A stretch of DNA of 64,000 nt. Origin: a bacterium (GTDB lineage Bacteria > Patescibacteriota > Patescibacteriia > JAGPKW01). A program made the translations under genes and the position numbers. Below, piece by piece: positions 25,058-42,765 of this stretch (position 1 is its first letter; each line of letters begins with the position of its first letter). The notes beneath the pieces are model-generated. The model was not told the origin of the DNA. It was given only the letters and a program-made list of their open reading frames with translations, and did no database searches. Location of the stretch: contig JAJXYN010000012.1 in assembly GCA_021780535.1 (NCBI GenBank), positions 69,688 to 133,687 on the forward strand. Direction: 5' to 3'.

Positions 25058-25495
25058 ATGCAAAAACAAGAAATTAAAAAACAAGATAAGAAAGAGATAA
25101 AATTTCCGGAAGGAAAATATCTTTATGCTGTTGGTAGAAGAAAATCTGCTATAGCTCAAGTTAGACTTTATAGTGGAAGAGGAAAATCTATTGTTAATGG
25201 AGTTGAGGCTGAAAAATATTTTGCAACTCCACTTATTAATAAAATGATTGAACCTTTGAAGCAAGTTTCAAAAGAAGGTGAATATGATGTTTATGTTAAA
25301 GTTGTTGGTGGTGGAACAAATGGGCAATCAGAGGCTATTAGACACGGAGTTTCAAGAGCAATATCAGAAGGTGATAAAGCTATTAGAACTACATTGAAGA
25401 AGTTAGGATTTTTAACTAGGGATCCTAGAGTAGTTGAAAGAAAGAAACCAGGTTTGAAGAAAGCTAGAAGAGCTCCTCAATGGGCAAAGCGTTAA
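25058..25495 (+). CDS. rpsI: 30S ribosomal protein S9
   Basis: GRRKSAIA, LTRDPRVVERKKPGLKKARRAPQWAKR. Confidence 0.97.
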   Translation: MQKQEIKKQDKKEIKFPEGKYLYAVGRRKSAIAQVRLYSGRGKSIVNGVEAEKYFATPLINKMIEPLKQVSKEGEYDVYVKVVGGGTNGQSEAIRHGVSRAISEGDKAIRTTLKKLGFLTRDPRVVERKKPGLKKARRAPQWAKR

Positions 25496-25592: not shown

Positions 25593-25826
25593 GTTCCTCA
25601 TGTGATTTTATCGGTGATAGATTAGTTACGTCATTACTTTTCTATCCCCGATAAAATCACACGAGGCGATAATAGATTGCCTCCGATAAAGACTTTTTAA
25701 ACTTATAAAGGTCTTTATTTTTTTAATAATCAAAATAGGATTTAAAAAATCTTATAGAAAGGAATAAATTTAAATAAAAAATTAAATAAAAAGTCAGTAA
25801 TCTCTTATAAATTAACTAATTAAATA

Positions 25827-26184: not shown

Positions 26185-26916
26185 ATGGAAAATAGTGGTT
26201 GGATAAAACTTCATAGAAAAATAGAAGAAAACTGGATATTTCAAGAAAAAAGAGTTTTCAGTAAATTTGAAGCTTGGCTACATTTTTTATTAAGAGCAAA
26301 CCATAAAGATAATAGAATATCACTCGGAAATGAAATAATAGAAATCAAACAAGGAAGTTTTATCACATCAGAAATTAAATTAATGAATCTTTTTAATTGG
26401 TCAAAGACTAAAATCAGATCTTTTTTAGAAGTCTTAGAAAAAGAAAAAATGATTATTAAAAAATCTGATACAAAAAAGACCACTATTTCCATTGTAAATT
26501 ATAATATTTACCAGAATTTAGAAACCACAAAAAAACCAAACAAAAACCAAAACAAAACTATAACAGAACCACAAAAAGACACAGACGAAGAATTTAAAAA
26601 TGAAAAGAATTATATAAATAACGATAATAGAAATTTTAAAAAATTTTCAGAAGATGAATTATTTAAAATAGATTATCTTTTAGAAAAAATAGGAAGTGAA
26701 AAAGAAAAACAAACTCTACTCGCAATAGCTTATCAATTAGGAATAAATTGGTTAGAAACTAGAATACCTTTTATTTTAGAAGATAGAGCAAATATAAATA
26801 ATATAGGTGCATATATTATGACTTTGGCTAAAAAAGATGGTTATGTACCAAAAAAGATAACAAAAAATAATTTTAGAGAAATGAAAAATATGATAATGGA
26901 AAAATTATCAATCTAA
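26185..26916 (+). CDS. Phage-type replication initiator (replisome organiser, wHTH N-terminus)
   Basis: GWIKLHRKI..W...ANH....GSFITSE..L...W.W...R.FL..LE...T.ISIVNY..YQ signature, then a low-complexity linker with A-rich iteron-like repeats. Confidence 0.8.
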   Translation: MENSGWIKLHRKIEENWIFQEKRVFSKFEAWLHFLLRANHKDNRISLGNEIIEIKQGSFITSEIKLMNLFNWSKTKIRSFLEVLEKEKMIIKKSDTKKTTISIVNYNIYQNLETTKKPNKNQNKTITEPQKDTDEEFKNEKNYINNDNRNFKKFSEDELFKIDYLLEKIGSEKEKQTLLAIAYQLGINWLETRIPFILEDRANINNIGAYIMTLAKKDGYVPKKITKNNFREMKNMIMEKLSI

Positions 26917-26933
26917 AAAATCCAATAAAGACA

Positions 26934-27815
26934 ATGTCTAAAACAAGTTTTATACAAGTACCAGAAGAAATAACAGAAAAATATTATAACAATTTGCAAT
27001 CAGCAGATAGATTTATAATACCAAGAATGAGATTTAAAAAGACAATATTATCGAGACAATTTATAAAAGGATTAAAACAAAAAACTTATTTAAAACAAAT
27101 ATCAGAAATATGGAAAGAATTCACAAAAGAGCAAAAACAAGCATGGAAAAATGTGGATTCTAGGAAATACCCTCATGGTTGGAGAATGTTTGTAACTGAT
27201 CAAAGTTTAAGAATAAAGCTAGGACTTACCGGAATAGTAACGCCTAATATTTATCATCAAGACTTGGTTGGTAAAATTCAAATACAATCGCCAGCACAAG
27301 AAATAAAATTAATTCAATTACATCCAAATAGTTATTGGATAAGTAAAAAAGTAAAAGGTTCAAAAAACATGTACGAGCCTGTGAAGATTGAAGAATATTT
27401 ATCTTTACCTTTAAAAATAGGGATAAGTTATAAATCAAATTTAGAAGTAACCGGCGAAGGAGCTTTTGCAAAATATTTCGTACGAATAAGGCATTTATAT
27501 CAAGGCAGAAATTTATTTACAGATGTAAGTATAGATATGCTTGCAAATACAGATTGGACATATAAAGAAGCTCAAAATACTTTCATGTTAGGTCAAGCAA
27601 TTTCTTATGATTTATATATTCATTTATACAAAGTAAAAGGAGAATTATTATTTGATAATTTAAAAGCTATTCATTCAGGAAGTAATTGGGCAAGAGATCA
27701 ATATTGTAAAAAGATAGAAAGAACATACACGAGAGGATTTTATCAAATACCAGAACATTGGTCGCCAGTGATAATCTCTCAAGGTGCTGATTATAAATCA
27801 ATTTATCCTATTTAA
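26934..27815 (+). CDS. Putative structural protein: basic helical N-domain plus beta-rich C-domain
   Basis: WKEFTKEQKQAWK...GWRMF motif shared with ORF 29892. Confidence 0.55.
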   Translation: MSKTSFIQVPEEITEKYYNNLQSADRFIIPRMRFKKTILSRQFIKGLKQKTYLKQISEIWKEFTKEQKQAWKNVDSRKYPHGWRMFVTDQSLRIKLGLTGIVTPNIYHQDLVGKIQIQSPAQEIKLIQLHPNSYWISKKVKGSKNMYEPVKIEEYLSLPLKIGISYKSNLEVTGEGAFAKYFVRIRHLYQGRNLFTDVSIDMLANTDWTYKEAQNTFMLGQAISYDLYIHLYKVKGELLFDNLKAIHSGSNWARDQYCKKIERTYTRGFYQIPEHWSPVIISQGADYKSIYPI

Positions 27816-27823
27816 TTAAAAAT

Positions 27824-28645
27824 ATGTCAGATTTTCCAAATACAATTTATAACCCAAGAGCAAAAGAAAATATTTATGGTGTTGTTTTTGATACAGCAAA
27901 TAAAAAGATGGCTTATGCGGAAGATTTTCAATTTTTAGATAATGAGGTTGTCGCTATTGAAAATGAGTTAGGAATAAATATAAAAGGCGTTTATCTAACT
28001 TTGAGAGAAAGAATAGAAAAAATGGAAATTGATATTTTTTTAGCAAATGATACTTTAGAGCCAAAAGCAAATAAATTTGAAATAGTAGATTTCTCAAATT
28101 TTACAGCAAGTAAAGTAGGTTCAGGTTCTAATATTAAAACGTGTTTTAGATTAAAACTTGCAACAGGAACTACAATAAACAGCAATGCAATAGCATATTT
28201 AAAATATTATAATTACGGGAATGCAGAATTTAGTTTTGATGAGAGTTTTCGTTTAATATTTTTTATAACTCAAATTTCAGGCGTTTTAAACGCTAATACT
28301 TTCTTAAAGGTAGATAATGACATAAATCCAGTAAATCCATCTAGCAAGGCCATAGGATTCAAATTAAATGGGTATAAATTGTTTGGCATTATTCACAATG
28401 GTACAAGTCTTCAAGAAATTGATTTGACTAAAAACCTTAATGCAAATGGAAAATTTAAACTAGAAATAAAATTTTTTATGTATAGTAAAATTGAATTTTA
28501 TGTAAATGATGTTAAGAGAGGCGAAAGTCAAAATATTCCTAATAGCTCAATGACTAATTCTAATATTTCAGTAAGTGTTGCAAATAATGCAGTTGCTAGT
28601 AATCAAGAAATTGCAGTGGGAAAAATATATTTAAGTGCTATATAA
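27824..28645 (+). CDS. Putative virion/receptor-binding protein, ConA/LamG-like C-terminus
   Basis: EVVAIENELG linker and KIEFYVND beta motif, paralogous to the next ORF. Confidence 0.5.
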   Translation: MSDFPNTIYNPRAKENIYGVVFDTANKKMAYAEDFQFLDNEVVAIENELGINIKGVYLTLRERIEKMEIDIFLANDTLEPKANKFEIVDFSNFTASKVGSGSNIKTCFRLKLATGTTINSNAIAYLKYYNYGNAEFSFDESFRLIFFITQISGVLNANTFLKVDNDINPVNPSSKAIGFKLNGYKLFGIIHNGTSLQEIDLTKNLNANGKFKLEIKFFMYSKIEFYVNDVKRGESQNIPNSSMTNSNISVSVANNAVASNQEIAVGKIYLSAI

Positions 28646-28650
28646 AAAAT

Positions 28651-29454
28651 ATGAGTATAGAAAATTGGTGTAATTTACCAAAATCACAAATTGATAATGA
28701 AACAATAGAAAATGCTATAAAAAGATTAATACAAGCACATTGCAATGATGTTAATGCACATTTGGAAGATGGTCAGAGCTTACACTCTCATAAAGCAAGT
28801 GAGGTTATAGATCATTTAGCATTTTCAATAGTGTCAGACAAAATTCAACAAGGAGCTATAAAATTCTATCAAGTTGAAGATAATTTGAGGGTTAAATATA
28901 CTCCACCGCTTGAAAGTATGGATGGTTGGAATTCGTATGGTGTTAATTTAACTTTGGGTGGTTTTTCCATGTATCAAGCTAATTTGCAGAATGTTTTATA
29001 TTATGCGATGACTTCCGGAATAGTTCCATTGAATTGGGAAAAGAATTTTACTTTTTCATTTCTTTGTAAAATTGGAGATACTACAAACTGTGTTGCTTAT
29101 GCTCTTGCTGGTGATGTTATGTATGATTCAGAAGATCAAGGAATTGGTTTTAAATTCATGAATAATAAAGTTTATACAACGCATGTAAGTATGATTAATG
29201 ATGTTCTTACTGAATTTTTAACTGAAATAAATGTTCAAAATAAAAATAGTTTTAATTTATATAGAGTTGAATTTGTTGCAGGTCAAAAAATTGAATTTTA
29301 TGTAAATGATCTTTTACTTGCTACACATACAATAAATTTTCCAAGTCAGTATTATTGTCACGGAATTATATTTTGTTTCAATATAAAGAATGTAAAAGTT
29401 GGATATGGTGCAATGTATGAAGTTGGGCAATTATATTTTGCTCAAGATAAATAA
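28651..29454 (+). CDS. Putative virion/receptor-binding protein, ConA/LamG-like C-terminus
   Basis: H..D.NAH coiled motif, IGFKF and KIEFYVND. Confidence 0.5.
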   Translation: MSIENWCNLPKSQIDNETIENAIKRLIQAHCNDVNAHLEDGQSLHSHKASEVIDHLAFSIVSDKIQQGAIKFYQVEDNLRVKYTPPLESMDGWNSYGVNLTLGGFSMYQANLQNVLYYAMTSGIVPLNWEKNFTFSFLCKIGDTTNCVAYALAGDVMYDSEDQGIGFKFMNNKVYTTHVSMINDVLTEFLTEINVQNKNSFNLYRVEFVAGQKIEFYVNDLLLATHTINFPSQYYCHGIIFCFNIKNVKVGYGAMYEVGQLYFAQDK

Positions 29455-29469
29455 TTAATAAAAATAATA

Positions 29470-29904
29470 ATGGAAATAGCTGAAATAATAACAGGGAAGG
29501 AATATCCTGAAAAAGTTATACCGATGATAGAAAATTGTAAAAAATCTATAGATATAGTTGTATTTGATTGGCGATGGTATCCGGATCAAATAGGGTCTAG
29601 TATTCAAAGATTTAATAATGCAATTGTTAAAAAAGGAAATACTGGAAAGCAAATAAGGGCAATAACAAATACAAAAGAAATTTCAAATGTTTTAATTCAA
29701 GGAAATATAAAAGCAAAAATATGGAAATCAAAAAGATTATTACATACAAAATTAATGATGATAGATGATGAAATTGCAATAATAGGAAGTCATAATTATA
29801 CATTAAATGCTTTTACAATAAATCAAGAAGTTTCTTTAATTATCAAGCAGAAACAAGTTTTAGAAAAATTAAAATTATATTTTGAAAATTTATGGCAGTT
29901 ATAA
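29470..29904 (+). CDS. Single-HKD phospholipase D-family (Nuc-like) nuclease
   Basis: LHTKLMMIDDEIAIIGSHNYT..A...NQE. Confidence 0.9.
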   Translation: MEIAEIITGKEYPEKVIPMIENCKKSIDIVVFDWRWYPDQIGSSIQRFNNAIVKKGNTGKQIRAITNTKEISNVLIQGNIKAKIWKSKRLLHTKLMMIDDEIAIIGSHNYTLNAFTINQEVSLIIKQKQVLEKLKLYFENLWQL

Positions 29905-30254
29905 AGCCAATACAGGAAGTTAAATCTTTAAATATTAAAAATAAATTAGGTACTTCATCTAATTTTGGTCAATTAACATTTGGTGAGACTAGATTTGGTC
30001 AATTTAAAAGTGAATATGGAATATATCAACAAAGAAGAAAAAGAAAAATTAAAATAACGATAAAAACTAAATTCTACTTACCAAAAAATCCAAAAACAGA
30101 AAGACAAATGATAAACCGATTAAAATTTAAAGAAGCAGTAAAAAAATGGCAAAATTTGACAAATAATGAGAAAGAAAAATATAATATAAGTACAAAATAT
30201 AAAAACTTATCAGGATATAATTTATTTATTAAACTAACTTTACTATCTAATTAA
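29892..30254 (+). CDS. Small basic putative DNA-binding/structural protein
   Basis: PKNPKTERQMINRLKFKEAVKKWQNLTNNEKEKYN...SGYNLF. Confidence 0.6.
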   Translation: MAVIKPIQEVKSLNIKNKLGTSSNFGQLTFGETRFGQFKSEYGIYQQRRKRKIKITIKTKFYLPKNPKTERQMINRLKFKEAVKKWQNLTNNEKEKYNISTKYKNLSGYNLFIKLTLLSN

Positions 30255-30306
30255 AGAGTCGAGTAAAAGCAAAACATTTTATTAAATAGTTTAAAAATAA
30301 AAATAT

Positions 30307-30882
30307 ATGCCAAAAGTTTCAGGGCCATTAATGTCTATGGACGCTAGTGGTAAACTCGGAAATTCAATTGTGTTTGGTAAATGGAAAGGTCAACATACAG
30401 TTAGAAGTTATGTAAAACCAGCAAATCCAAAAAAACCAGAGCAAGGTGATGTTAGACTTATATTAGGTGGACTTGGTAGGGCTTGTGGTTTTGTAGCAAA
30501 AGATAAAGGTTATCATACAAAATTGTTAGCTTTAAATATTATTCCATCATCTCAAAGTAAACAATCTTTTTTAGTTAAATACTTCAAAGATTTATTTATA
30601 AATGGAAGTGGAACAGTAATGAATACTAATTACGATGATCTTTTACTAGAGTTACAAGCACATACTGCTTATGCTGATTTTAATACAAAAGCTGTATCAA
30701 TAGGAATATCAGATTTTAGTTTGAGTTATGCTAGTTTAGCACCATTTGAAAAAGCTCTTTGTCTTTATATATTAGCAAAAGGCGCAATTTCTTTGGGATT
30801 TACAGGAACACCTTACACAAAATCACTTGCAACTTGGACATCAACAGATATTCAATCTTTGATAGTAGATTTACAAGGTTAA
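30307..30882 (+). CDS. Putative major structural protein (DUF6266-like N-terminus)
   Basis: MPKVSGPLMSMDASGKLGNSIVFGKWKGQHTVRSYVKPANPK..Q..VR. Last gene of the operon, followed by the hairpin GGAGGTCTCAT...ATGAGGCCTCT. Confidence 0.55.
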   Translation: MPKVSGPLMSMDASGKLGNSIVFGKWKGQHTVRSYVKPANPKKPEQGDVRLILGGLGRACGFVAKDKGYHTKLLALNIIPSSQSKQSFLVKYFKDLFINGSGTVMNTNYDDLLLELQAHTAYADFNTKAVSIGISDFSLSYASLAPFEKALCLYILAKGAISLGFTGTPYTKSLATWTSTDIQSLIVDLQG

Positions 30883-31042
30883 AAATAGGAGGTCTCATTT
30901 TATATGAGGCCTCTTACGATTAAAAAAATTCAAAATACAATTTAAACCACCCACGATAAACTCAATAACAAACCTTTATCGGTTCAGAAATGCTATTTAA
31001 CTTTAACTTGATAAAGTCTTATACAAAGTATGAAGTACGCTC

Positions 31043-31630
31043 GCTAAATTTTTTATTCCGGAGTACCTCCATAAAAAAATAAGCTCGCTGATGAACGTTT
31101 ATCTATAATCAACGTTTTTTATCTAGTCCATCCCGCTCCTTTCTTATTAATGTTCGCAGTAGCTCACATAAATAAGAAATCCGCTAGCTAAAATTGCCCA
31201 TAATTTTTTGAGTACAAAAAAATAGGCAATTTCTCTGCTAATAAACTTCAGTTTGCAAAATAGACAAGTGCTAACCCGTAAAATTTTTATAAATCTTCGT
31301 AGTAACTACGATTAATAAAAAATTTTACTCACTGCATCACATTATTTTTATGTTCCGCTATCGCTACACATAAAAATAAGTGATTTATGAAAATTAAAAA
31401 GTAAGAAGTGCTAACCCGGAAAAAAATAATAAACTAAGGTTAAAAAATCCGGTGAACGTAACGGTGCTCGCATAACAAGACATTTTGCGACACCTCGCTA
31501 CGTGATTGCTAGTTTAAAAGCACATCTAAAGAACCGCTCGCCGCTCGCAAAATGCTATGTTATGCGACACCTATACAGACCATCACGTTTATTGCCCCGG
31601 ACTTTTTAGAAAATTAATCTATTTTTTTCC
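31043..31630. other. Non-coding hairpin array ending in a ~210-nt imperfect rod
   Basis: Five 40-50 nt hairpins (31043-31384) and a long inverted-repeat rod (31418-31630); see findings. Confidence 0.8.
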
Positions 31631-32015: not shown

Positions 32016-32639
32016 ATGGAAATAAATAAAAGATATAAACAAAATATATTAATACCAGATCAATTTTTGACCCAGAACGAAGTTGGGTGCTTGTTGAAAT
32101 CCATAGATACAAGAACATTTTTAGGAAAAAGAGATAAAGTAATTCTGTTGTTATTTTTAAATACAGGACTTAGAAAAAATGAATTATTAAGTTTGAATAT
32201 AGAAAACTATAAAAAAGAAAATAATGATTATTGGTTAGAATTCAAAGCAAAAGGCGGACAAATACATATACAAAATATATCTCAAATAGAAGTTATAAAA
32301 GCCGTAGATTCATATTTAAAATTATGGAAAATAGGAAACAATGAATTAGAGCCTATATTTCAAAGTACTTATGATTGCAAAAATAAGAGTGGCAAAAGAT
32401 TAAGTAAACAGTCATTAGAATTTATGCTTAAAAAATATGGCAAACAAGCAGGAATTCAAAAAAAATTACATATTCATATGTTAAGACATACAGCAGGAAG
32501 TGAATTTTATAGATTAACTCAAAATTTACCTTTAACTCAAATGTTTTTAAGACATAAAAGTATAAATTCAACTCTTATCTATATGCACGCAGACAAAACA
32601 AAAGTAAAAGAAGTTCAAAAATTGATGTTCAAAAATTAG
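32016..32639 (+). CDS. Short tyrosine recombinase (catalytic domain only)
   Basis: TGLRKNE, KAKGG, HMLRH, LRHKS and IYMH give a complete R-K-H-R-H-Y set. 207 aa. Confidence 0.9.
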   Translation: MEINKRYKQNILIPDQFLTQNEVGCLLKSIDTRTFLGKRDKVILLLFLNTGLRKNELLSLNIENYKKENNDYWLEFKAKGGQIHIQNISQIEVIKAVDSYLKLWKIGNNELEPIFQSTYDCKNKSGKRLSKQSLEFMLKKYGKQAGIQKKLHIHMLRHTAGSEFYRLTQNLPLTQMFLRHKSINSTLIYMHADKTKVKEVQKLMFKN

Positions 32640-32792: not shown

Positions 32793-33212
32793 ATGATTAT
32801 AAAAGATCTAAATAGATTAAATAAAAAAGTAAAAGAATTATGCGAAAAATTTATCAATGAGTGTAAAAACAAAGATATAACTGTAATTATCACAGAAACA
32901 TTTAGAGATAAATCAAGACAAGAACAAGCAGTAATCGAAAATAAAAGCAATGCTCATTTTGGTTACTCATTTCATAATTATGGATTAGCTTTCGATTTTG
33001 CTGTGTTAAATAAAAATAAAGGAATCACTTGGAATGTAAATAAAGATAAAAATTGGTTTATTTGCGGTGAAATCGGTAAGAAACTAGGTCTTTCTTGGGG
33101 TGGTGATTGGAAAATGAAAGATTATTGTCATTTTGAGTTCTATTTTAATATAAATAGAGATGTTTTGCTTAATAAATTATTAAAAGGATTTGATGCTAAT
33201 AAATTAAGTTAA
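32793..33212 (+). CDS. M15-family peptidoglycan peptidase (endolysin)
   Basis: ETFR...Q, SFHNYGLAFD, WGGDW..DYCHFE. Confidence 0.9.
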   Translation: MIIKDLNRLNKKVKELCEKFINECKNKDITVIITETFRDKSRQEQAVIENKSNAHFGYSFHNYGLAFDFAVLNKNKGITWNVNKDKNWFICGEIGKKLGLSWGGDWKMKDYCHFEFYFNINRDVLLNKLLKGFDANKLS

Positions 33213-33216
33213 AAAT

Positions 33217-33420
33217 ATGCCAGAAACAAAACAAATTTATCAATCAATGACGATTATGGGCGCTGTTATCGTAATAATTTCTTTTGTTGTTAATAGATTA
33301 AATATTGATATTTCAAATAAAGAAGTTGTTGATGTAGTGAGTGCGGTTTTTGTAATAGGAGGCGCTTTGATTTCTATTATTGGACGAATTAGGGCTAATA
33401 AGAGGATAGGGAAAAAATAA
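33217..33420 (+). CDS. Putative holin (2 TM)
   Basis: Two hydrophobic helices and a basic GRIRANKRI tail, 4 nt after the lysin. Confidence 0.7.
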   Translation: MPETKQIYQSMTIMGAVIVIISFVVNRLNIDISNKEVVDVVSAVFVIGGALISIIGRIRANKRIGKK

Positions 33421-33858: not shown

Positions 33859-35982
33859 ATGTTAAAAGTTCAAATAGAAAAAAATAAAATATTTTCTCCT
33901 CTTAGAAAAAAATGGTTAATAAATACTCCAGAAGAAGAAGTCAGACAAGGTTATATTTGTAAGCTTGTTAATGATTATGGGTATGATTTAGAACAAATAG
34001 ATGAAGAGTTGCAGGTAAATAATAGTTTAAGAGGACAAGGTAAATCAAGAGCAGATATTGTCATTTGGAAATCAAAAGAAGAAAGGTTGAGCAAAAAAAA
34101 TGCTTTTATTGTTGTTGAATGTAAATCTGATAATGTTGTTATACATCCAGAAGATTATTATCAAGGTAATAACTATGCTTCTTGGGCAAGGGCTAAATTT
34201 TTTATTACTCACAATAATGCTGAAACAAAGTATTTTCAGATGCTTGAAGATAAATTACCTATTGATTTAAATGAAATAGCTAATATACCCAAAGCGGAAG
34301 AAGTAAATAATGAGATTAGATTGAAAGAGTTAGTTGATGAAACTAAAGTATTTACTAGAGATGAATTTTCAAAGTTACTTTATAAATGTCATACAATAAT
34401 TAGAAATAATGACAAACTTTCTCCTGAAGGTGCTTTTGATGAAATTAGTAAAATATTATTTATTAAGATAAGATATGAAAGACAAAAAGGGAAAAATATA
34501 TTTTCTCTTGCTCGTTTTAATGAATTAAAAAATAATTATGAAGAAACTGCTTCTAGAAACTCTAAGCCGTTTTATCAAAATTTATTTGAAAAAACAAAAG
34601 ATGATTTAGAGAAAGATGAACTTTTTGAAACGAATGAAGAGATAAAAATTCGTGAAAATAGCTTTGAACAAATAGTAAAAGAACTGGAGAAATATAATCT
34701 TTCAGATACAGGAGATGATGTTAAAGGAATAGCTTTTGAGCAATTTTTAGGCAAAACATTTAGAGGTGAGCTTGGGCAATTTTTTACTCCTAGAACAATA
34801 GTTGATTTCATGGTTGATATTTTAGACCCAAAAGAAAATGATTTAATTTGTGATCCTTGTTGTGGATCTGGTGGTTTTCTTATTAAAGCTTTTGACTATA
34901 TTAGAGCTAAAATTGAAGCTGATATTTTGAGACAAAAAGAAGAAATCAAAAATAAATATTTTGATGAAAAGTATCAAAAATTAGATGATAAAGAAAAGCA
35001 AAAGATTGATGATACTGTAGAACGTGAATTTAAGAAATTGAATCAAGAACTAGATAATAAAATAGAAAAATCTAGATTACATAATTTATCTCATAATTGT
35101 ATATATGGTTCTGACGCTAATCCAAGAATGGCAAGAACTAGTAAAATGAATATGATTATGCATGGTGATGGTCATGGTGGAGTTCATCATAATGATGGAT
35201 TATTGGATGTTAATGGTATCTTTGAAAACCGTTTTGATATAATTCTTACAAACCCTCCTTTTGGTTCAAGAGTTGGCAAAGATCACAAAATAACAGATAA
35301 TGATAATAAATATAAAGGCAAAGAATCTTATATTAAAGAAAAATTTGGTGATGCAGGTTTAAATGCAATATCTAATTTAGAGAATAACATTGGTAAAAAT
35401 CTTATAGAAACTTATGAAACTGGAAGTTTTTCAACTCTTACAGAAGTTTTGTTTATGGAACGTTATCTAAGATTGCTTAAGCAAGGTGGGAAAATGGCCG
35501 TTGTTTTGCCAGAGGGTTTTTTAAATAATCCAAATTTACAAAAAGTAAGAGAATATTTTGAAGGTAGAGCTAAGATTGAGCTTATCGTTTCTATCCCTCA
35601 GGATGTATTTATAGCTAGCGGGGCTACGGTAAAGCCCAGTTTGGTGTTTTTACAAAAATTTACTCAAGTAGATAGTAAAAAATATGAAAAAATAAAAGAG
35701 GAAGTAAATAAAAATATTATAGAAAAATATCAAATTCAAATAGATGAATTAGAAAATGAATTAGAAAAACTAAAAGGAGATAAAAGAAAACTAAAGAAAA
35801 AAGAATTGGATAATTTAGAAATTCTTATTGAAACTGAGATAAAACAGGAGATTAAAAATAAATTTGATTATCAAATACCAATAGTAGAAGTTGAAAAAGC
35901 TGGCATTACAACAACAGGAGAAAAATGTGAAAATGAACTTTTAGATGTAGTAAAAGAGTATAGAAAATATAAATCTAAATAA
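33859..35982 (+). CDS. Fused restriction nuclease (HSDR_N-like) plus HsdM-type N6-adenine methyltransferase
   Basis: PEEEVRQ..ADIVIW..VECKS, then GQFFTPR, DPCCGSGGFL and TNPPFG. Confidence 0.9.
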   Translation: MLKVQIEKNKIFSPLRKKWLINTPEEEVRQGYICKLVNDYGYDLEQIDEELQVNNSLRGQGKSRADIVIWKSKEERLSKKNAFIVVECKSDNVVIHPEDYYQGNNYASWARAKFFITHNNAETKYFQMLEDKLPIDLNEIANIPKAEEVNNEIRLKELVDETKVFTRDEFSKLLYKCHTIIRNNDKLSPEGAFDEISKILFIKIRYERQKGKNIFSLARFNELKNNYEETASRNSKPFYQNLFEKTKDDLEKDELFETNEEIKIRENSFEQIVKELEKYNLSDTGDDVKGIAFEQFLGKTFRGELGQFFTPRTIVDFMVDILDPKENDLICDPCCGSGGFLIKAFDYIRAKIEADILRQKEEIKNKYFDEKYQKLDDKEKQKIDDTVEREFKKLNQELDNKIEKSRLHNLSHNCIYGSDANPRMARTSKMNMIMHGDGHGGVHHNDGLLDVNGIFENRFDIILTNPPFGSRVGKDHKITDNDNKYKGKESYIKEKFGDAGLNAISNLENNIGKNLIETYETGSFSTLTEVLFMERYLRLLKQGGKMAVVLPEGFLNNPNLQKVREYFEGRAKIELIVSIPQDVFIASGATVKPSLVFLQKFTQVDSKKYEKIKEEVNKNIIEKYQIQIDELENELEKLKGDKRKLKKKELDNLEILIETEIKQEIKNKFDYQIPIVEVEKAGITTTGEKCENELLDVVKEYRKYKSK

Positions 35983-35983
35983 C

Positions 35984-37339
35984 ATGGTTTCTGTGATAAA
36001 TAAAATTGAATATAAATATTTACAATTCACATCTTTTAAAAATTGGTTAAATTGGGATGTAAAAAGTTATGCAAAAAACAATCTTAAATCAGATTATGAG
36101 TTTATAAAATTAGGCTCTGTGTTAAAAGAACATGTTGAAAAAGTAAAATTAAAAGATTTTCCAGACAAAGAGTTTGGTATTTTAGGTGTAAATAATAAAA
36201 TTGGTATTTTCGATGCTTATTTGGAAAAAGGTTCAAAAATAAATCAGCCATATAAAATATTAAAAAACAATTGGATTGCTTATAATCCTTATCGTGTAAA
36301 TGTTGGTTCAATAGGAATTAAAACACAAAATGAAAAATATGAGTATATAAGTAATGCTTATGTTGTTTTTAGTTGTGATGAACAAAGATTAGATACGGAT
36401 TTCTTTTTTAGACTTTTTAAAACAGATACATTTAATAATCTTGTTAAGAAATCAACGAAAGGTTCTGTTCGTCAAAATCTTTCTTTTGATTTACTTAGTA
36501 ATATTCAAATTCCTTTGCCTTCTATTAGTGCTCAAAAAGAATTTATAAAAATTTATAATAATAAAATATCAGACATTAAAAAACTAGAAATTCAAGTTAA
36601 CGAAATAAGTAGTAAAATTGAAAGTTATTTAATGAAAGAGCTTAATATAAGCGTAGAGAAAACTCAAAAAATAAAAGGTCTTCATTTTGTAAATTTTAAA
36701 AATTTAAATAAGTGGACATTAAATGAAACAACTTTAGAGAAAATACAAGAAAAATCAAAATATAAGGCTGTCCCAATAGAAAAAATATCAGAAAGTATTT
36801 TAAGAGGAAAATCTCCAAAATATGACGATAATTCTAATTGTGTTATTTTAAATCAAAAATGTAATCGTTGGGATGAAATTGATTTGGAATTTGCAAAAAC
36901 AGTAAATAAAGAATGGCTAAATAAGCAAACTCTTTTTACTAAAGAAAGTGATGTTTTGATAAATTCAACCGGCGAAGGAACAATTGGAAGATCTACGTAT
37001 ATATTAAAAAGTTATGAGGGGTTACTTTTTGATAGTCATCTACTTTTATTTAGGGGAGATAAAAAAATTATAAATGGAAAATATTTTGTGTATTGGTTTA
37101 ATTCAACAATAAATCAACAATATCTGAATGAAATAAAATCAGCGCAAACAACAAAACAAACAGAATTAGGATCTAATAATTTAAGTAATATGTTGATTCC
37201 TTTACCACCTCTTGAAACGCAAGAAGAAATAGTAAATCAAATAGATTCTTGGAAAAATAAAATTAAGGATATTAATGAAAAAATTGAGTCATTAAGAGAA
37301 GGTGCTCAAAAAGAATTTGAAGTTAATCTTTTTAAATAG
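35984..37339 (+). CDS. HsdS-type specificity subunit
   Basis: Two TRDs, ending IPLPSISAQ and IPLPPLETQEEIV. Confidence 0.9.
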   Translation: MVSVINKIEYKYLQFTSFKNWLNWDVKSYAKNNLKSDYEFIKLGSVLKEHVEKVKLKDFPDKEFGILGVNNKIGIFDAYLEKGSKINQPYKILKNNWIAYNPYRVNVGSIGIKTQNEKYEYISNAYVVFSCDEQRLDTDFFFRLFKTDTFNNLVKKSTKGSVRQNLSFDLLSNIQIPLPSISAQKEFIKIYNNKISDIKKLEIQVNEISSKIESYLMKELNISVEKTQKIKGLHFVNFKNLNKWTLNETTLEKIQEKSKYKAVPIEKISESILRGKSPKYDDNSNCVILNQKCNRWDEIDLEFAKTVNKEWLNKQTLFTKESDVLINSTGEGTIGRSTYILKSYEGLLFDSHLLLFRGDKKIINGKYFVYWFNSTINQQYLNEIKSAQTTKQTELGSNNLSNMLIPLPPLETQEEIVNQIDSWKNKIKDINEKIESLREGAQKEFEVNLFK

Positions 37340-37355
37340 ATGCAATAAAGTAAAA

Positions 37356-37410
37356 TTTATAAAAAATAAAAAACTAAGATTTATTTCTTAGTTTTTTTAT
37401 TTTTTATAAA
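37356..37410. terminator. Long AT-rich inverted repeat / terminator
   Basis: TTTATAAAAAATAAAAAACTAAGA...TCTTAGTTTTTTTATTTTTTATAAA. Confidence 0.55.
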
Positions 37411-37506
37411 GTTCATGATTTGTTCATTTTTTGCATACCTTATTGAAAAAACATTTAAAAGGTGTATCATTAAATAGTAAATATACTAAATGATTTTTAT
37501 AAAAAT

Positions 37507-38781
37507 ATGAATGAAATTATATGTCCAAATTGTAAAAAAGCTTTTAAAGTTGATGAGGCTGGTTTTGCTGATATTCTTAAACAAGTCCGCGATGAAGCGT
37601 TTAGTAAAGAATTAAAAGAACGTGAGAGAATGTTTGCTGAAGATAAAGAGAATTCTATTAAATTAGCTGAAGCAAATATTAAAAATTTGTTACAAAAAGA
37701 TATTTCAAAAAAAGAAACGGAAATAGCTGAAATAAAAGCTAAAAAAGATTTAGAGATTGCTGAACTTGATGCAAAAAAAGAAGCTGAATTGGCTGAAATG
37801 AAATCAAAAATAGATAATGCAGAAATTGAGAAAAAACTTGCCGTAACTGAAGCAGTAAATAAAATTGAGAAAGATCGTGATAATCTTGCAGGTGAATTAA
37901 AAATTAAAGATACAGAAAAACAATTACTTGAAACATCATTAAAAGAAAAATATATCACAGAACTTAAAACAAAGGATGATATTATTAAAATGAAAGATGA
38001 TGAAATTGCTCTTCGTAAAGATATGAAAGTTAAACTTTCTACAAAAATGATAGGTGAAACATTAGAACAACATTGCGAAACAGAGTTTAATAAACTTCGT
38101 GCTACTGGTTTTCAAAATGCATATTTTGAAAAAGATAATGATGTAAAAACTGGTAGTAAGGGTGATTATATTTATCGTGAAAATACTGAAGAAGGTAATG
38201 AAATTATTTCTATTATGTTTGAAATGAAAAATGAAGGAGATGAAACTGCTACAAAGAAAAAAAATGAAGATTTTTTACGTGAGCTTGATAAAGATCGTAT
38301 AGAGAAAAAATGTGAATACGCGGTGCTTGTTACTCTTCTTGAATCTGAAAATGAATTATATAACACTGGTATCGTTGATGTTTTTCATAAATATCCAAAA
38401 ATGTATGTAATTCGTCCACAATTTTTTATTCAAATAATAACTTTATTACGTAATGCAGCTACGAATTCTCTAAAATATAAAGCAGAACTTGCATTAGTAA
38501 GAAATCAAAATGTTGATATTACAAATTTTGAGGACAATGTAAATAAATTTAAAGAAGAATTTGGAAGAAATTATGAATTGGCCAGTCGTAAGTTTAAAAC
38601 AGCTATTGAAGAAATAGATAAAACAATAGATCATCTTCAAAAAACTAAAGAAGAACTTTTATCATCTGAAAACAACCTTCGTTTAGCCAATAATAAAACA
38701 GAGGATTTAACCATTAAAAAACTAACACGTGGTAATCCTACTATGACAGCTAAATTTGCAGAGATTACAAATATTAAATAA
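37507..38781 (+). CDS. DUF2130-family coiled-coil protein
   Basis: [37 protein letters not shown]. Confidence 0.85.
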
Positions 38782-38795
38782 TAACTAAAATATAT

Positions 38796-39008
38796 ATGCA
38801 AAGACAAAATGTTTCATCTTCTGATATTGCTTCAATTGGGTACGATCAAAATTTATTCATATTAGAAATTGAATTTTTAAGTGGAGGAATATATCAATAT
38901 ATTAATGTGCCAAGTAGTATTTTTCAAGGAATAATGTCCGCTTCTTCTCATGGTGTTTATTTTCATCAATATATTAAAGATAAATATAGCTGTAATAAAA
39001 TTAAATAA
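38796..39008 (+). CDS. KTSC-domain protein
   Basis: VSSSDIASIGYD....LEIEF.SGGIYQY..VP.......ASSHG.YF. Confidence 0.9.
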   Translation: MQRQNVSSSDIASIGYDQNLFILEIEFLSGGIYQYINVPSSIFQGIMSASSHGVYFHQYIKDKYSCNKIK

Positions 39009-39010
39009 AT

Positions 39011-40897
39011 ATGTTTTTAACAAAATTAATAATAATAAATAACAAAAGTTGCAAAAGAGTAATTTTAGAACCATCTAAGGATGAGCCAGAAATTTTGATT
39101 GGTATAAACGATTGCGGAAAGTCTACAATTTTAAAGTCTTTAGATTTATTTTTTGATGAGAAAAAAAATTTTAGTTTTATTAAAGAAGATCAACAAAAAA
39201 ATGATCTTTCAAACTCTCCTTTAAACAACTTAGAAATCAATGAATTATTAGAAGAAAATAAGTATCCAAGTTTTTTTGAGTATTCTGGTGATGTTATTAT
39301 CGTTATTTGTCAATTTGAGGTAGAAGAAAATGATTTAAAAAATAATGAATTTCAAGAAAGTTCAAAAAATGCTCATTTAAAATGGAGTATTATTGATAAT
39401 AAAATAAATTTAATGCGTGTATTTCATAATTCTGAACAAGGATCACAGAATTTGAGCGGGTATTATTTACTAACTAATGATTATAAAGATAATGAAAGTT
39501 ATTTAGAGTTATGGAATAAGCCAGCTAAAGAATTAACAGAAATTAAGAAAAAATTTAATATTGATAATAAAGATGTAGATAATGAAAATAATGTTGGTCG
39601 TTTAAAGAATATTGAAAATATAGAGGCAATTTATAAAAAAATGCCTACCTTATGTATGAAATGGTCTAAATATAGTGATTTTTCAAAAGATAAAACATTC
39701 TACCCAAATTTTAAATATTTGGATTGGAATTTTTCTTTAAAGGAATTAGAAGATATAGCTACTGAGGCAATGAATAAGGTGACAGAACCACTACTTCAAG
39801 AGATAAGACAGTTGGTTTCTGAAAAACAATCCGAAGCTATAATCGGTGTTAATAATGAATTTGCTAGTATGATGGGAGATTTGAAAGATGATCTACCTAA
39901 GTGTGTAAAAAAAATTAGCTCATCAGTATTTTTTGATGTAAGTCAAAAGGTTACTGATATAAAACTAGAAAAAGAAAATGTTGATGGAGAAATACATATA
40001 GATAATCAAGGAGAGGGCATAAAGAGGCAGATTTGGTTTGCGTTGTTAAAGTGGCGTAGTAAATTAATATCTAATGAAAATAAATCAAATAAATATGTTT
40101 GGTGTTTTGATGAACCAGAAACACATTTATATCCTGCCGCACAAAGGCAACTCTTTGAGACATTAAAAGAAATGTGTAGTAATGAATTTCAAATATTATT
40201 GAGCACACACTCAACAATTTTTATAGATAGAACAAAAATTAGTGATGTTAAGCAAGTAACTTTAGAAGGTGGTTACTCAACTATTTATAAAAGCGATAAC
40301 TCAACAGATCTTTTTAATTGTTTGGGTATAAAAAATAGTGATTTTTTGTTTTTTGATAAGTTTTTAGCCGTAGAAGGCTTTACTGAGTATGGTTTAATTC
40401 CATATTTGTATCAGTTGAAATATTCTAGGTCATTATTAAATGATGGAATACAAATCATCAACTTAAAAGGGGAAGACCAATATTTAAATAATAAAGGTAT
40501 CTTAGAAAATATTTTATCTGATTTTCAGAAGACTAGTGATAAAATTTTTTATTTATTTGATAATGATACAGGAATGTCTGGCGACAATATTTTTACTTCT
40601 GGCACTTATGATATAGAAGATTCTATTGAAAATAATATTTGGATTGAATTTGTAAAAGATAATTGTGATATAGATATAACGGAAGATATTTTGAATAATG
40701 ATATAAGAAAAAAATTAGAAAACAAGAATGGTAAAAAATTTTATAAGTTACTTGGAGATTATGTAGTAAAAAATTTAAAAGATGAAAAATATTTGCCATC
40801 TAAAGCTAGATCGGGTTATTTGTTAACTAAGTATTTTAAAGACATTAAAGATATTCCTAAAAAAATTGATAACCTTTTTAACGCATTAAGTTCTTAA
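39011..40897 (+). CDS. OLD-family ATP-dependent nuclease (ABC ATPase + TOPRIM)
   Basis: GINDCGKST, QGEG, FDEPETHLYP, STHS, VEGFTE and FDND. Confidence 0.85.
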   Translation: MFLTKLIIINNKSCKRVILEPSKDEPEILIGINDCGKSTILKSLDLFFDEKKNFSFIKEDQQKNDLSNSPLNNLEINELLEENKYPSFFEYSGDVIIVICQFEVEENDLKNNEFQESSKNAHLKWSIIDNKINLMRVFHNSEQGSQNLSGYYLLTNDYKDNESYLELWNKPAKELTEIKKKFNIDNKDVDNENNVGRLKNIENIEAIYKKMPTLCMKWSKYSDFSKDKTFYPNFKYLDWNFSLKELEDIATEAMNKVTEPLLQEIRQLVSEKQSEAIIGVNNEFASMMGDLKDDLPKCVKKISSSVFFDVSQKVTDIKLEKENVDGEIHIDNQGEGIKRQIWFALLKWRSKLISNENKSNKYVWCFDEPETHLYPAAQRQLFETLKEMCSNEFQILLSTHSTIFIDRTKISDVKQVTLEGGYSTIYKSDNSTDLFNCLGIKNSDFLFFDKFLAVEGFTEYGLIPYLYQLKYSRSLLNDGIQIINLKGEDQYLNNKGILENILSDFQKTSDKIFYLFDNDTGMSGDNIFTSGTYDIEDSIENNIWIEFVKDNCDIDITEDILNNDIRKKLENKNGKKFYKLLGDYVVKNLKDEKYLPSKARSGYLLTKYFKDIKDIPKKIDNLFNALSS

Positions 40898-41575: not shown

Positions 41576-42505
41576 ATGGCAGAAATTATTAATATTGATA
41601 AGAGTAATATTAAAATAGTAAATGATTTTTTAGATTGGTTGGCTATCGGACATTCTTTGGAAACAGTTGATTCATATAAGTGGCCTTTGAGATTATTTTG
41701 TAAATGGTTATCTGGCAAAGAAAAAAATGTTATTGATATGAAAGAAAAAGATTTTGTAGCCTTTCATTTATTTTTAAAAGAAGACAGGCAGGTAAAAAAT
41801 TCAACGATGGCTCATTATTTTACATCTATTAGAACACTTTGGAGATATATGTATAGAAATGAAATGGTAAATTATGGTGATGATAAAATTCCAATGCCAA
41901 AAGCTGATGATAAACAATCTTATCCTTATGCGGAAGAGGCTGATATAAATAAAATACTTGATTCATTTAGGGGCTGGGATATAAAAGATATTAGAGATAA
42001 AGCTATTGTTTCTTTATTGTATAAGACAGGTTTAAGAATAGGAGAGTTGAGAAGTCTTGATATTTCTGATGTTGATTTAGAATTTAAAAAAGCTACTGTT
42101 CAAACTGAAAAAAGGATAGGACACAAAAGAGAAATTTATTGGGATGATAAAACAAATGAATTTTTAAAAAACTGGATAGATACAAGAGAAGAATTTTTAC
42201 TACAAGAAAGACGATCAGAAAATGCTTTATTTATAGGTATGACAATGGGTAGTAAAGATAAAAGAATAGATAGATCAACAGTACAAAAGATGTTTAGAAA
42301 AAAAAGAGATGAGTTAGGAATAAATAAAAAACTAACACCACATTCTTGCAGACATGGATTCGGACATAGAGCAGTAGAAAAGAATGTAAATATTAGATAT
42401 CTTCAAGTAATGCTTGGGCATTCAAAAATAGACACAACAATGATTTATATGGGTTGTAAAAATAAAGACGTAGAAACTGCTTATAGACAATTAATGTTCG
42501 CTTAG
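41576..42505 (+). CDS. Tyrosine integrase (XerC/D-like)
   Basis: SAM-like N-domain, TGLRIGE, TPHSCRH, LGHS and TTMIY; adjacent to the right att core. Confidence 0.92.
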   Translation: MAEIINIDKSNIKIVNDFLDWLAIGHSLETVDSYKWPLRLFCKWLSGKEKNVIDMKEKDFVAFHLFLKEDRQVKNSTMAHYFTSIRTLWRYMYRNEMVNYGDDKIPMPKADDKQSYPYAEEADINKILDSFRGWDIKDIRDKAIVSLLYKTGLRIGELRSLDISDVDLEFKKATVQTEKRIGHKREIYWDDKTNEFLKNWIDTREEFLLQERRSENALFIGMTMGSKDKRIDRSTVQKMFRKKRDELGINKKLTPHSCRHGFGHRAVEKNVNIRYLQVMLGHSKIDTTMIYMGCKNKDVETAYRQLMFA

Positions 42506-42682: not shown

Positions 42683-42765
42683 CCCCAATGGGCAAAAAGA
42701 TAATTTTCTGTTTATTTTTTCTATCATAGTAAAAACAATTCTGAGAAATCGGAATTGTTTTTTTG
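42683..42765 (+). other. Displaced original rpsI 3' end (attR) and its terminator
   Basis: Encodes PQWAKR*, followed by AAAAACAATTCTGA-GAAA-TCGGAATTGTTTTTT. Confidence 0.85.

Follow-up and report, generated by a model that had tools for sequence, protein, structure and literature searches.

The window analysed here, a stretch of 64,000 nucleotides from a Patescibacteria genome, harbors a row of hairpins in a structured non-coding region of about 590 nt, which lies inside a virus-like element of 17 kb integrated at rpsI. We read this array as a single-stranded DNA (ssDNA) origin or packaging region of the element, acting as the folded minus strand, and give this reading a probability of about one half. 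An earlier note, made from the letters of the DNA only, had proposed either a functional ssDNA or a large antisense ncRNA. The former stands in part: the stems are mostly spared by strain substitutions, the hairpin module covaries in attC-like sites, and relatives of the element carry DNA-type loops with an end-specific polarity. Support also comes from hairpin H5, whose module recurs in attC-like sites as a bottom-strand arm that covaries; it is as a folded bottom strand that attC sites recombine.

Structure of the hairpin array

Five hairpins, their tips and both copies of a 13-mer had been described before, and all of them were confirmed at their positions. The region is larger than the array described then and extends to position 31625, as a sixth hairpin (H6) follows. 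The parts are (position 1 is the first letter of the window):

30887..30915, plus strand: terminator-like hairpin behind ORF 30307 with a weak T tract and two plus-strand G.T pairs
31039..31088, minus strand: H1, T-run stem, GGA/GGA loop, 2-bp stem, TACT tip
31094..31116, minus strand: small extra hairpin, one purine-purine mismatch on the minus strand
31135..31184, minus strand: H2, AT-rich stem, GA/GA tandem, GC-TACT-GC tip
31185..31240, minus strand: H3, long stem, TACT tip, no G.A bracket
31266..31278, plus strand: 13-mer direct repeat, copy 1, candidate protein-binding site
31278..31328, minus strand: H4, GTA/GAA loop with TACT tip; a competing register has a 6-bp tip stem
31336..31384, minus strand: H5, GTA/GGA loop, GC-GATA-GC mini-hairpin tip
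31406..31418, plus strand: 13-mer direct repeat, copy 2
31441..31625, minus strand: H6, long imperfect stem, core 31463-31571, branched tip, absent from the earlier note

At the foot of H1 a GA/GA tandem is predicted on the minus strand, and at the foot of H2 a GGA/GGA loop. The 11-nt core of the 13-mer is present only twice in the 860-kb genome, and the duplicated 13-mer may be a protein-binding site. A terminator scan of the region did not call the hairpin behind ORF 30307.

The region 31030-31430 folds better than 100 of 100 shuffles on each strand. The claim that the minus strand is the better folded one holds by energy (minus vs. plus: RNA -105.9 vs. -83.9 kcal/mol, DNA -60.6 vs. -55.4 kcal/mol) but not by z-score (RNA -6.0 vs. 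-6.1, DNA -7.5 vs. -8.1). The case for the minus strand is therefore built on the purine loops and the G.T pairs, which number 5 of 154 pairs on minus vs. 1 of 149 on plus, and not on z-scores.

A scan for the pattern stem-G(N)A-short stem-loop-G(N)A-stem gave four matches in the array, all on the minus strand; of 3,000 dinucleotide-shuffled sequences, 30 had a single match, the other 2,970 had none, and 0 had two or more. Genome-wide, 12 G(N)A-bracketed matches have an outer stem of at least 9 bp, 4 of them in the array, and 70 were found with an outer stem of 6 bp. Control brackets in the same scan yielded 0–14 matches; the exceptions were A..A with 54 and T..T with 51, the genome being AT-rich. 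That all four bracketed hairpins share a strand is not due to chance. The internal purine loops listed in the earlier note for four of the hairpins are present on the minus strand; H3 lacks a G.A bracket, and for H4 the energy model favors the other register with a 6-bp tip stem. Sheared G.A pairs are predicted in these loops and would brace the stems.

The DNA mini-hairpin form GCGNAGC/GCGNNAGC, in which two G-C pairs close a GNA or GNNA loop, is found in H5 only. The tips of H1–H4, four of the five, are TACT loops instead of GNNA mini-hairpin loops, which speaks against the ssDNA reading. According to PMC13037366, mini-hairpins of this form are far more stable in DNA than in RNA, are poorly bound by SSB, and in the GCGNAGC-type occur at the G4 origin and at ssiA, both ssDNA priming sites. 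The loop-type argument has been applied to STAXI in the opposite direction (PMC2864571). Among 401 genomes of the class the TACT-tip pattern matched G000 only.

Could the minus strand act as RNA? A minus-strand ncRNA would be antisense to both flanking operons, and its purine loops would be sheared-GA/loop-E-type modules, which are stable in RNA too. Its RNA energy is 22 kcal/mol lower than that of the plus strand, G.U-compatible pairs favor minus as well, and H2 matches the Rfam family Flavo-1 weakly. This is the best Rfam match on the array, at 18.4 bits vs. a threshold of 42 (E 0.73); the Rfam scan of the window returned only tRNA and no family for the array at the gathering threshold. Further evidence points away from RNA: the scan for a minus-strand promoter or terminator gave none, the tips of the array are neither GNRA nor UNCG, and the end regions of relatives use GNA triloops (43 cGNAg hairpins) and not UUCG (1 cUUCGg). 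The large antisense ncRNA of the earlier note is thus less likely, and we regard it as quite unlikely to account for the array.

Variation between strains

Homologs of the whole array were not found outside near-identical strains, and 60 related genomes gave AT-rich chance matches only; the sequence searches also found no homolog of the whole region in phages, plasmids or family loci. Covariation among the window's own hairpins was left uncounted, since these had been picked for pairing. Variation was followed in array-covering contigs from two other studies, which are single contigs of low depth; the counts refer to X5 and X6 and leave out two differences in X5 and most of those in X3 and X4.

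X6 carries 9 substitutions in 31038-31581 with only 1 at a paired position, although 54% of positions are paired (p=0.01), and this change stays paired as G.T on the minus strand. One change in X6 converts the H5 loop from GATA to GAGA, so that G and A are retained. For X5 and X6 together, 4 of 14 substitutions lie at paired positions (p=0.048). In the hairpin 31094-31116 two strain substitutions keep the purine-purine state. The limited evidence from these sequences suggests that the array is under selection, its stems being mostly spared. Conservation of structure over sequence, as had been claimed, is consistent with this sparing and with the covariation of the same module in attC-like sites, but compensatory double changes were not seen among the X5/X6 substitutions.

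The X5 changes at 31197 and 31457 break pairs of the minus strand and give G.T on plus, and another substitution, at 31048, hits a paired base; these changes and the lack of compensatory ones are at odds with the ssDNA reading. The first two would fit a structure of duplex DNA, either a cruciform or a barrier to transcription or replication, or else a decoy that draws DNA-binding or defence proteins of the host. In line with this, folding is far better than in shuffled sequences on either strand, and the same element carries restriction-modification and OLD nuclease genes; a cruciform, on the other hand, needs neither purine loops on one strand nor the end polarity seen in relatives. A duplex structure or decoy appears quite improbable to us.

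An arm shared with attC-like sites

The core of H5 recurs in 3 of 400 genomes of the class, with 0 for a control pattern. There it forms an arm of a 100–130-nt site, which is bounded by AAC and GTT and lies beside single genes on the opposite strand. The site in G178 adjoins a divergent integrase of 270 aa, which scores 208 bits on TIGR02249, below the cut-off of 265. An attC-like site was matched in 18 of 400 other genomes of the phylum. The sites of this attC-like family (L419/L422/L425 in G178:C6, L426, L418, L427-L450) lie beside single cassette-like genes and have a branched terminal structure with an invariant GNA/GNA-bracketed arm. attC sites recombine as folded bottom strands (PMC2727003), and the text consulted of a survey on attC models is silent on Patescibacteria (PMC8352920).

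For the arm alignment, 13 distinct arms from 17 sites were kept of 26 BLAST rows; these rows came from a search with a single member and were cut to the surroundings of the motif. No variation occurs in these 13 arms at the four bracket bases. Pairing holds in 93.6% of the cells, and for 7 of the 12 pairs both partners change. H5 is 93% identical to the attC-like arm over 28 nt. The top two sites of the arm model in the window are H5 with 39 bits (E 3e-5), partly by construction, and H1 with 25.9 bits (E 0.014); H4 is weak and H2 and H3 were not reported. Applied to 90 family loci, it placed 12 of 15 weak sites in the end regions, which make up ~14% of the sequence.

The array itself is not an attC. 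Like an integron attC, it has in H5, and more weakly in H1, the first arm of the branched terminal structure on the equivalent strand. The full-site model, however, aligns over H1 and H5 through the arm only, with the basal pairs broken, so that the R and L boxes expected to pair where the bottom-strand fold begins were not found. The would-be boxes are unpaired and variable between strains. No cassette ORF lies between the hairpins, and the neighboring ORF 32016 reaches 31.9 bits on TIGR02249 vs. the cut-off of 265 and is not an integron integrase. The array was rejected as an attC site: it has the arm structure on the bottom strand, but the paired boxes and the cassette setting are missing.

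The 28-nt identity and the full-site alignment over H1 and H5 could also mean that arms of attC-like cassette sites were captured and amplified and are now functionless or a generic stable fold. This is highly unlikely: substitutions avoid the stems, five different stems pair well, the would-be boxes vary as described, and no such attC site was found elsewhere in the host at E<=0.001.

The element and its genes

The host genome comprises 860 kb in 12 contigs, the main ones with 26% GC. An 11-bp repeat duplicates the end of rpsI and delimits the element. The element is absent at rpsI in G002 and G004, where this gene is immediately followed by genes from beyond 43400; in G001 the contig ends at the site and in G003 other DNA follows. 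The element contains, among others:

25478..25488, plus strand: left attachment repeat, within rpsI at its 3' end
26185..26916, plus strand: DnaD/O-like replication initiator gene (phrog_2514, E 4e-35), precedes the cassette
26934..27815, plus strand: conserved 293-aa protein, predicted C-terminal carbohydrate-binding-like beta-sandwich
29470..29904, plus strand: PLD (HKD) nuclease-like gene with a single domain, clustered in 59 of 96 loci
29892..30254, plus strand: 120-aa basic protein, in relatives in the same similarity cluster as ORF 30307
30307..30882, plus strand: marker gene of the family, basic protein of 191 aa without a fold match
32016..32639, plus strand: short tyrosine recombinase, catalytic domain only, R-K-H-R-H-Y motifs present
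32793..33420, plus strand: M15 endolysin and small holin-like gene
42686..42696, plus strand: right attachment repeat, follows the integrase at 41576-42505

Here, the array sits between the cassette 26934-30882 and the short recombinase, the M15 endolysin and the holin-like gene. ORF 26934 is likely a virion protein, judging from its modeled C-terminal sandwich, a type seen in tail fibres (structural match with Z 11.8, rmsd 2.8, 133 aligned); it was rejected as a Rep, its structure not being Rep-like. For ORF 30307 a confident model was obtained (pLDDT 87.5), which had no Foldseek match at E<=0.001; its best VIA Z was 4.0. In the Atlas it falls into unnamed, mostly viral clusters with DUF6266 as a lead. 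A capsid role would be conceivable. The family has the PLD nuclease-like gene among its core genes; its product is a candidate end-processing enzyme.

Neither a capsid nor a terminase nor an HUH Rep was recognized in the element, which is why its viral nature is inferred. We also infer that its minus strand is at times single-stranded and that the array has a role in priming or packaging. Compared with sso and ssi sites of rolling-circle replicons, the array has the strand-specific, extensive hairpin structure in non-coding DNA, but no HUH or Rep_trans initiator was found among 13 window ORFs or 101 ORFs of 15 relatives, several of these ORFs being without assignment. The DnaD/O-like initiator suggests ordinary theta replication, which weakens the ssDNA reading. 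The same holds for the sequencing depth, which in run X1 is flat across the element; in runs X1–X4 neither a joint nor a depth rise was seen at the array, in contigs that drop rare forms. The host genome (91% complete) gave no PF17764 match for PriA, as a primosome assembly site would need, and TIGR00595 matched only far below cut-off, which counts on the same side.

The short tyrosine recombinase, with its full catalytic motifs, lies 390 bp downstream of H6. It might use the array as substrate by cutting and rejoining folded strands, either converting an excised circle into an inverted-repeat or hairpin-ended form or causing inversion. In line with this, H5 and H1 match the attC arm, the two-copy 13-mer resembles a binding site, and the assembly of one relative (L082) holds inverted isomers around 90-bp repeats with G.A hairpins. 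However, a palindrome or inverted partner of the array is absent from the window, a similar recombinase was detected in 1 of 95 close loci (L095), and no strand-switch joint was found in four runs. We consider this explanation unlikely. The window has this one control region, and its lack of an inverted partner or enclosing palindrome, which sets it apart from the free relatives, also counts against the ssDNA reading. Relatives of the short recombinase were not found in viral contigs.

Some further features of the element were seen. Just inside its left border (25596-25720), a 31-nt inverted repeat and further small hairpins are present, and the contig of run X1 shows 7 differing positions between 25624 and 25702. 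Inside the initiator gene (26519-26572), three A-rich repeats spaced 11 bp apart are possible theta-origin iterons. At 33859-40897 the element carries restriction-modification genes, DUF2130, KTSC and OLD nuclease as cargo.

Virus-like relatives and their ends

The gene cassette upstream of the array defines a family of virus-like contigs of ~9–12 kb, often binned with Patescibacteria. ORF 30307 has 97 matches, itself included, and a homolog in 2 of 400 other class genomes. Alignment of ORF 30307 gathered 5 viral loci, the best 80 of 545 metagenome loci and 51 genome loci; the cassette is conserved in these 80 metagenome loci (the best of 545) and in part of the 51 genome loci. In the close relatives listed, the array does not directly follow the 30307 homolog, and a terminator and other genes follow instead. 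Pfam searches of 101 ORFs from 15 loci, with core genes left out for most of these, revealed genes for lysis and for glycosyl- and methyltransferases; L090 yielded an O-like initiator and L095 part of an integrase. No HUH Rep, polymerase, primase or packaging ATPase was found among these ORFs.

The sequence of the array is not conserved in the family loci, which share the design only. Its tip recurs in the non-coding ends of L007, L049 and L067. Hairpins of the cGNAg, cGNYAg and G.A-bracketed types were counted in end regions after removal of near-duplicates, which retained 24 of the 28 regions at left ends and 46 of the 50 at right ends, the latter including unassigned ORFs. Left ends hold 17 such hairpins on minus vs. 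6 on plus (by locus 9:3 with 12 ties), and right ends 37 on plus vs. 8 on minus (by locus 18:3 with 25 ties), counts that are overstated because the loci are kin and of which half or more by locus are ties. Each strand thus tends to carry hairpins near its own 3' end. The density is about 0.7–1.2 per kb in end regions vs. about 0.1 in coding cores, where 131 kb hold 10 and 14 such hairpins. The strand with the G.A loops points away from the lysis genes in the window, as it does at the right ends of relatives, and in L082 and L107 such hairpins follow the 30307 homolog on the minus strand. Against the ssDNA reading, both strands of L082 carry G.A hairpins. A purine bias at position 3 of the GNNA loops of relatives was not found, nor was a G.A hairpin near the 13-mer in any of 120 loci holding it.

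Two leads were discarded. Exact tip patterns in IMG/VR were mostly chance, with the outer stem in 2 of 22 and 1 of 118 matches and none in an array, and the word TAACCCG, common to the array and L082, is too short.

Of 26 loci of at least 8 kb, 12 end in inverted repeats, one contig end recurring in inverted orientation close to the opposite end. Several family contigs end in a foldback with a perfect stem of 30–127 bp and an apex of long A/T-run arms; foldback ends whose multi-arm, A/T-run apices measure 240–350 nt were found in L038, L041, L042, L052, L089 and L097. An inverted repeat partner together with an enclosing palindrome, as in a hairpin telomere or ITR, is thus present in relatives and not in G000. 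These ends fit a linear, hairpin-ended genome as well as a circle with two inverted repeats, between which contigs cannot separate. Inverted terminal repeats and giant foldbacks mark the ~10-kb members L041, L052, L097, L038, L042, L089 and L076, in which no replication or capsid gene could be recognized, and the apex in L042 consists of short tandem repeats. L082 (1-1159, 4837-4926, 7569-8816) is apparently circular, with 7.6 kb, an HTH initiator-like gene and an M15 endolysin; its 90-bp repeats with G.A hairpins are direct and inverted, and the assembly suggests inversion isomers.

More specifically, the array could be the integrated genome end of an undescribed ~10-kb family of Patescibacteria viruses, parvovirus-like in being linear with inverted terminal repeats and multi-arm foldback tips, with a capsid of new fold and without an own initiator. 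G.A-zipper hairpins at the 3' end of each strand would serve host priming, the ends would be resolved by the PLD nuclease or the short tyrosine recombinase, and the module would be common to host attC-like sites. In this full form the proposal is doubtful.

Proposed function and known systems

For the ssDNA origin or packaging region that we favor, the following course can be envisaged. The minus strand would be exposed or displaced during replication of the element, whereupon its AT-rich stems may fold into a row of hairpins, with sheared G.A zippers as predicted brace. Braced in this way, the hairpins would resist coating by SSB and could mark a site of complementary-strand priming or the start of packaging. 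Candidate readers are host primase, RNA polymerase and the basic proteins 29892 and 30307 of the element.

Terminal hairpins and ITRs are known from parvoviruses, poxviruses and rudiviruses. The free relatives likewise have inverted terminal repeats, foldback ends and branched apices; they differ in their bacterial hosts, no NS1/Rep, polymerase or resolvase was recognized, and the copy in the window is internal and unpartnered. The filamentous phages f1 and M13 have one intergenic region with about five tandem hairpins. The array is similar and could, like it, combine a packaging signal with a minus-strand origin, whereas a gII-type HUH protein and a Zot-like ATPase were not found here and lysis genes are present.

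The complementary-strand origin of phages G4, St-1 and alpha3 and the plasmid site ssiA, as given in PMC13037366, are alike in clustered ssDNA hairpins, G.A-closed mini-hairpins and a non-coding location, and the H5 tip fits GCGNNAGC. In contrast, the array has longer AT-rich stems, internal GNA/GNA loops and TACT tips, and no HUH Rep or primase gene was found. The guanine/adenine zippers of Satellite III DNA consist of GGA/GGA-type GNA loops bracketed by sheared G.A in a pyrimidine-GNA-purine context (PMC11014236). The array resembles them in GGA/GGA and related GNA loops bracketed by predicted sheared G.A. It differs in that each hairpin tip has just one such module beneath it and in that GTA/GGA and GTA/GAA loops are mixed in; the geometry of these is taken by analogy.

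The G.A and mini-hairpin motifs are already known. What appears new is the array in the element, the end architecture of the virus-like family, the family of attC-like sites and the arm shared with them, for none of which a description was found in the literature searched, mostly open-access, although one may exist. Few viruses of Patescibacteria have been described. By way of the array, a common family came to light whose small virus-like genomes have structured-DNA ends and lack recognizable capsid, packaging and mostly replication genes. Should the array serve as their single-strand origin or packaging signal, it would reveal how copying proceeds in a genome that has no Rep. The occurrence of the G.A-zipper arm in attC-like sites suggests a reusable folding module of ssDNA in these bacteria.

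Distant homologs of ORF 30307 (L101, L102, L106, L107, L112) lie in apparent proviruses of Methylococcaceae, Acidobacteriota and Contendobacter. Those of Acidobacteriota form small islands with GC-rich structured flanks.
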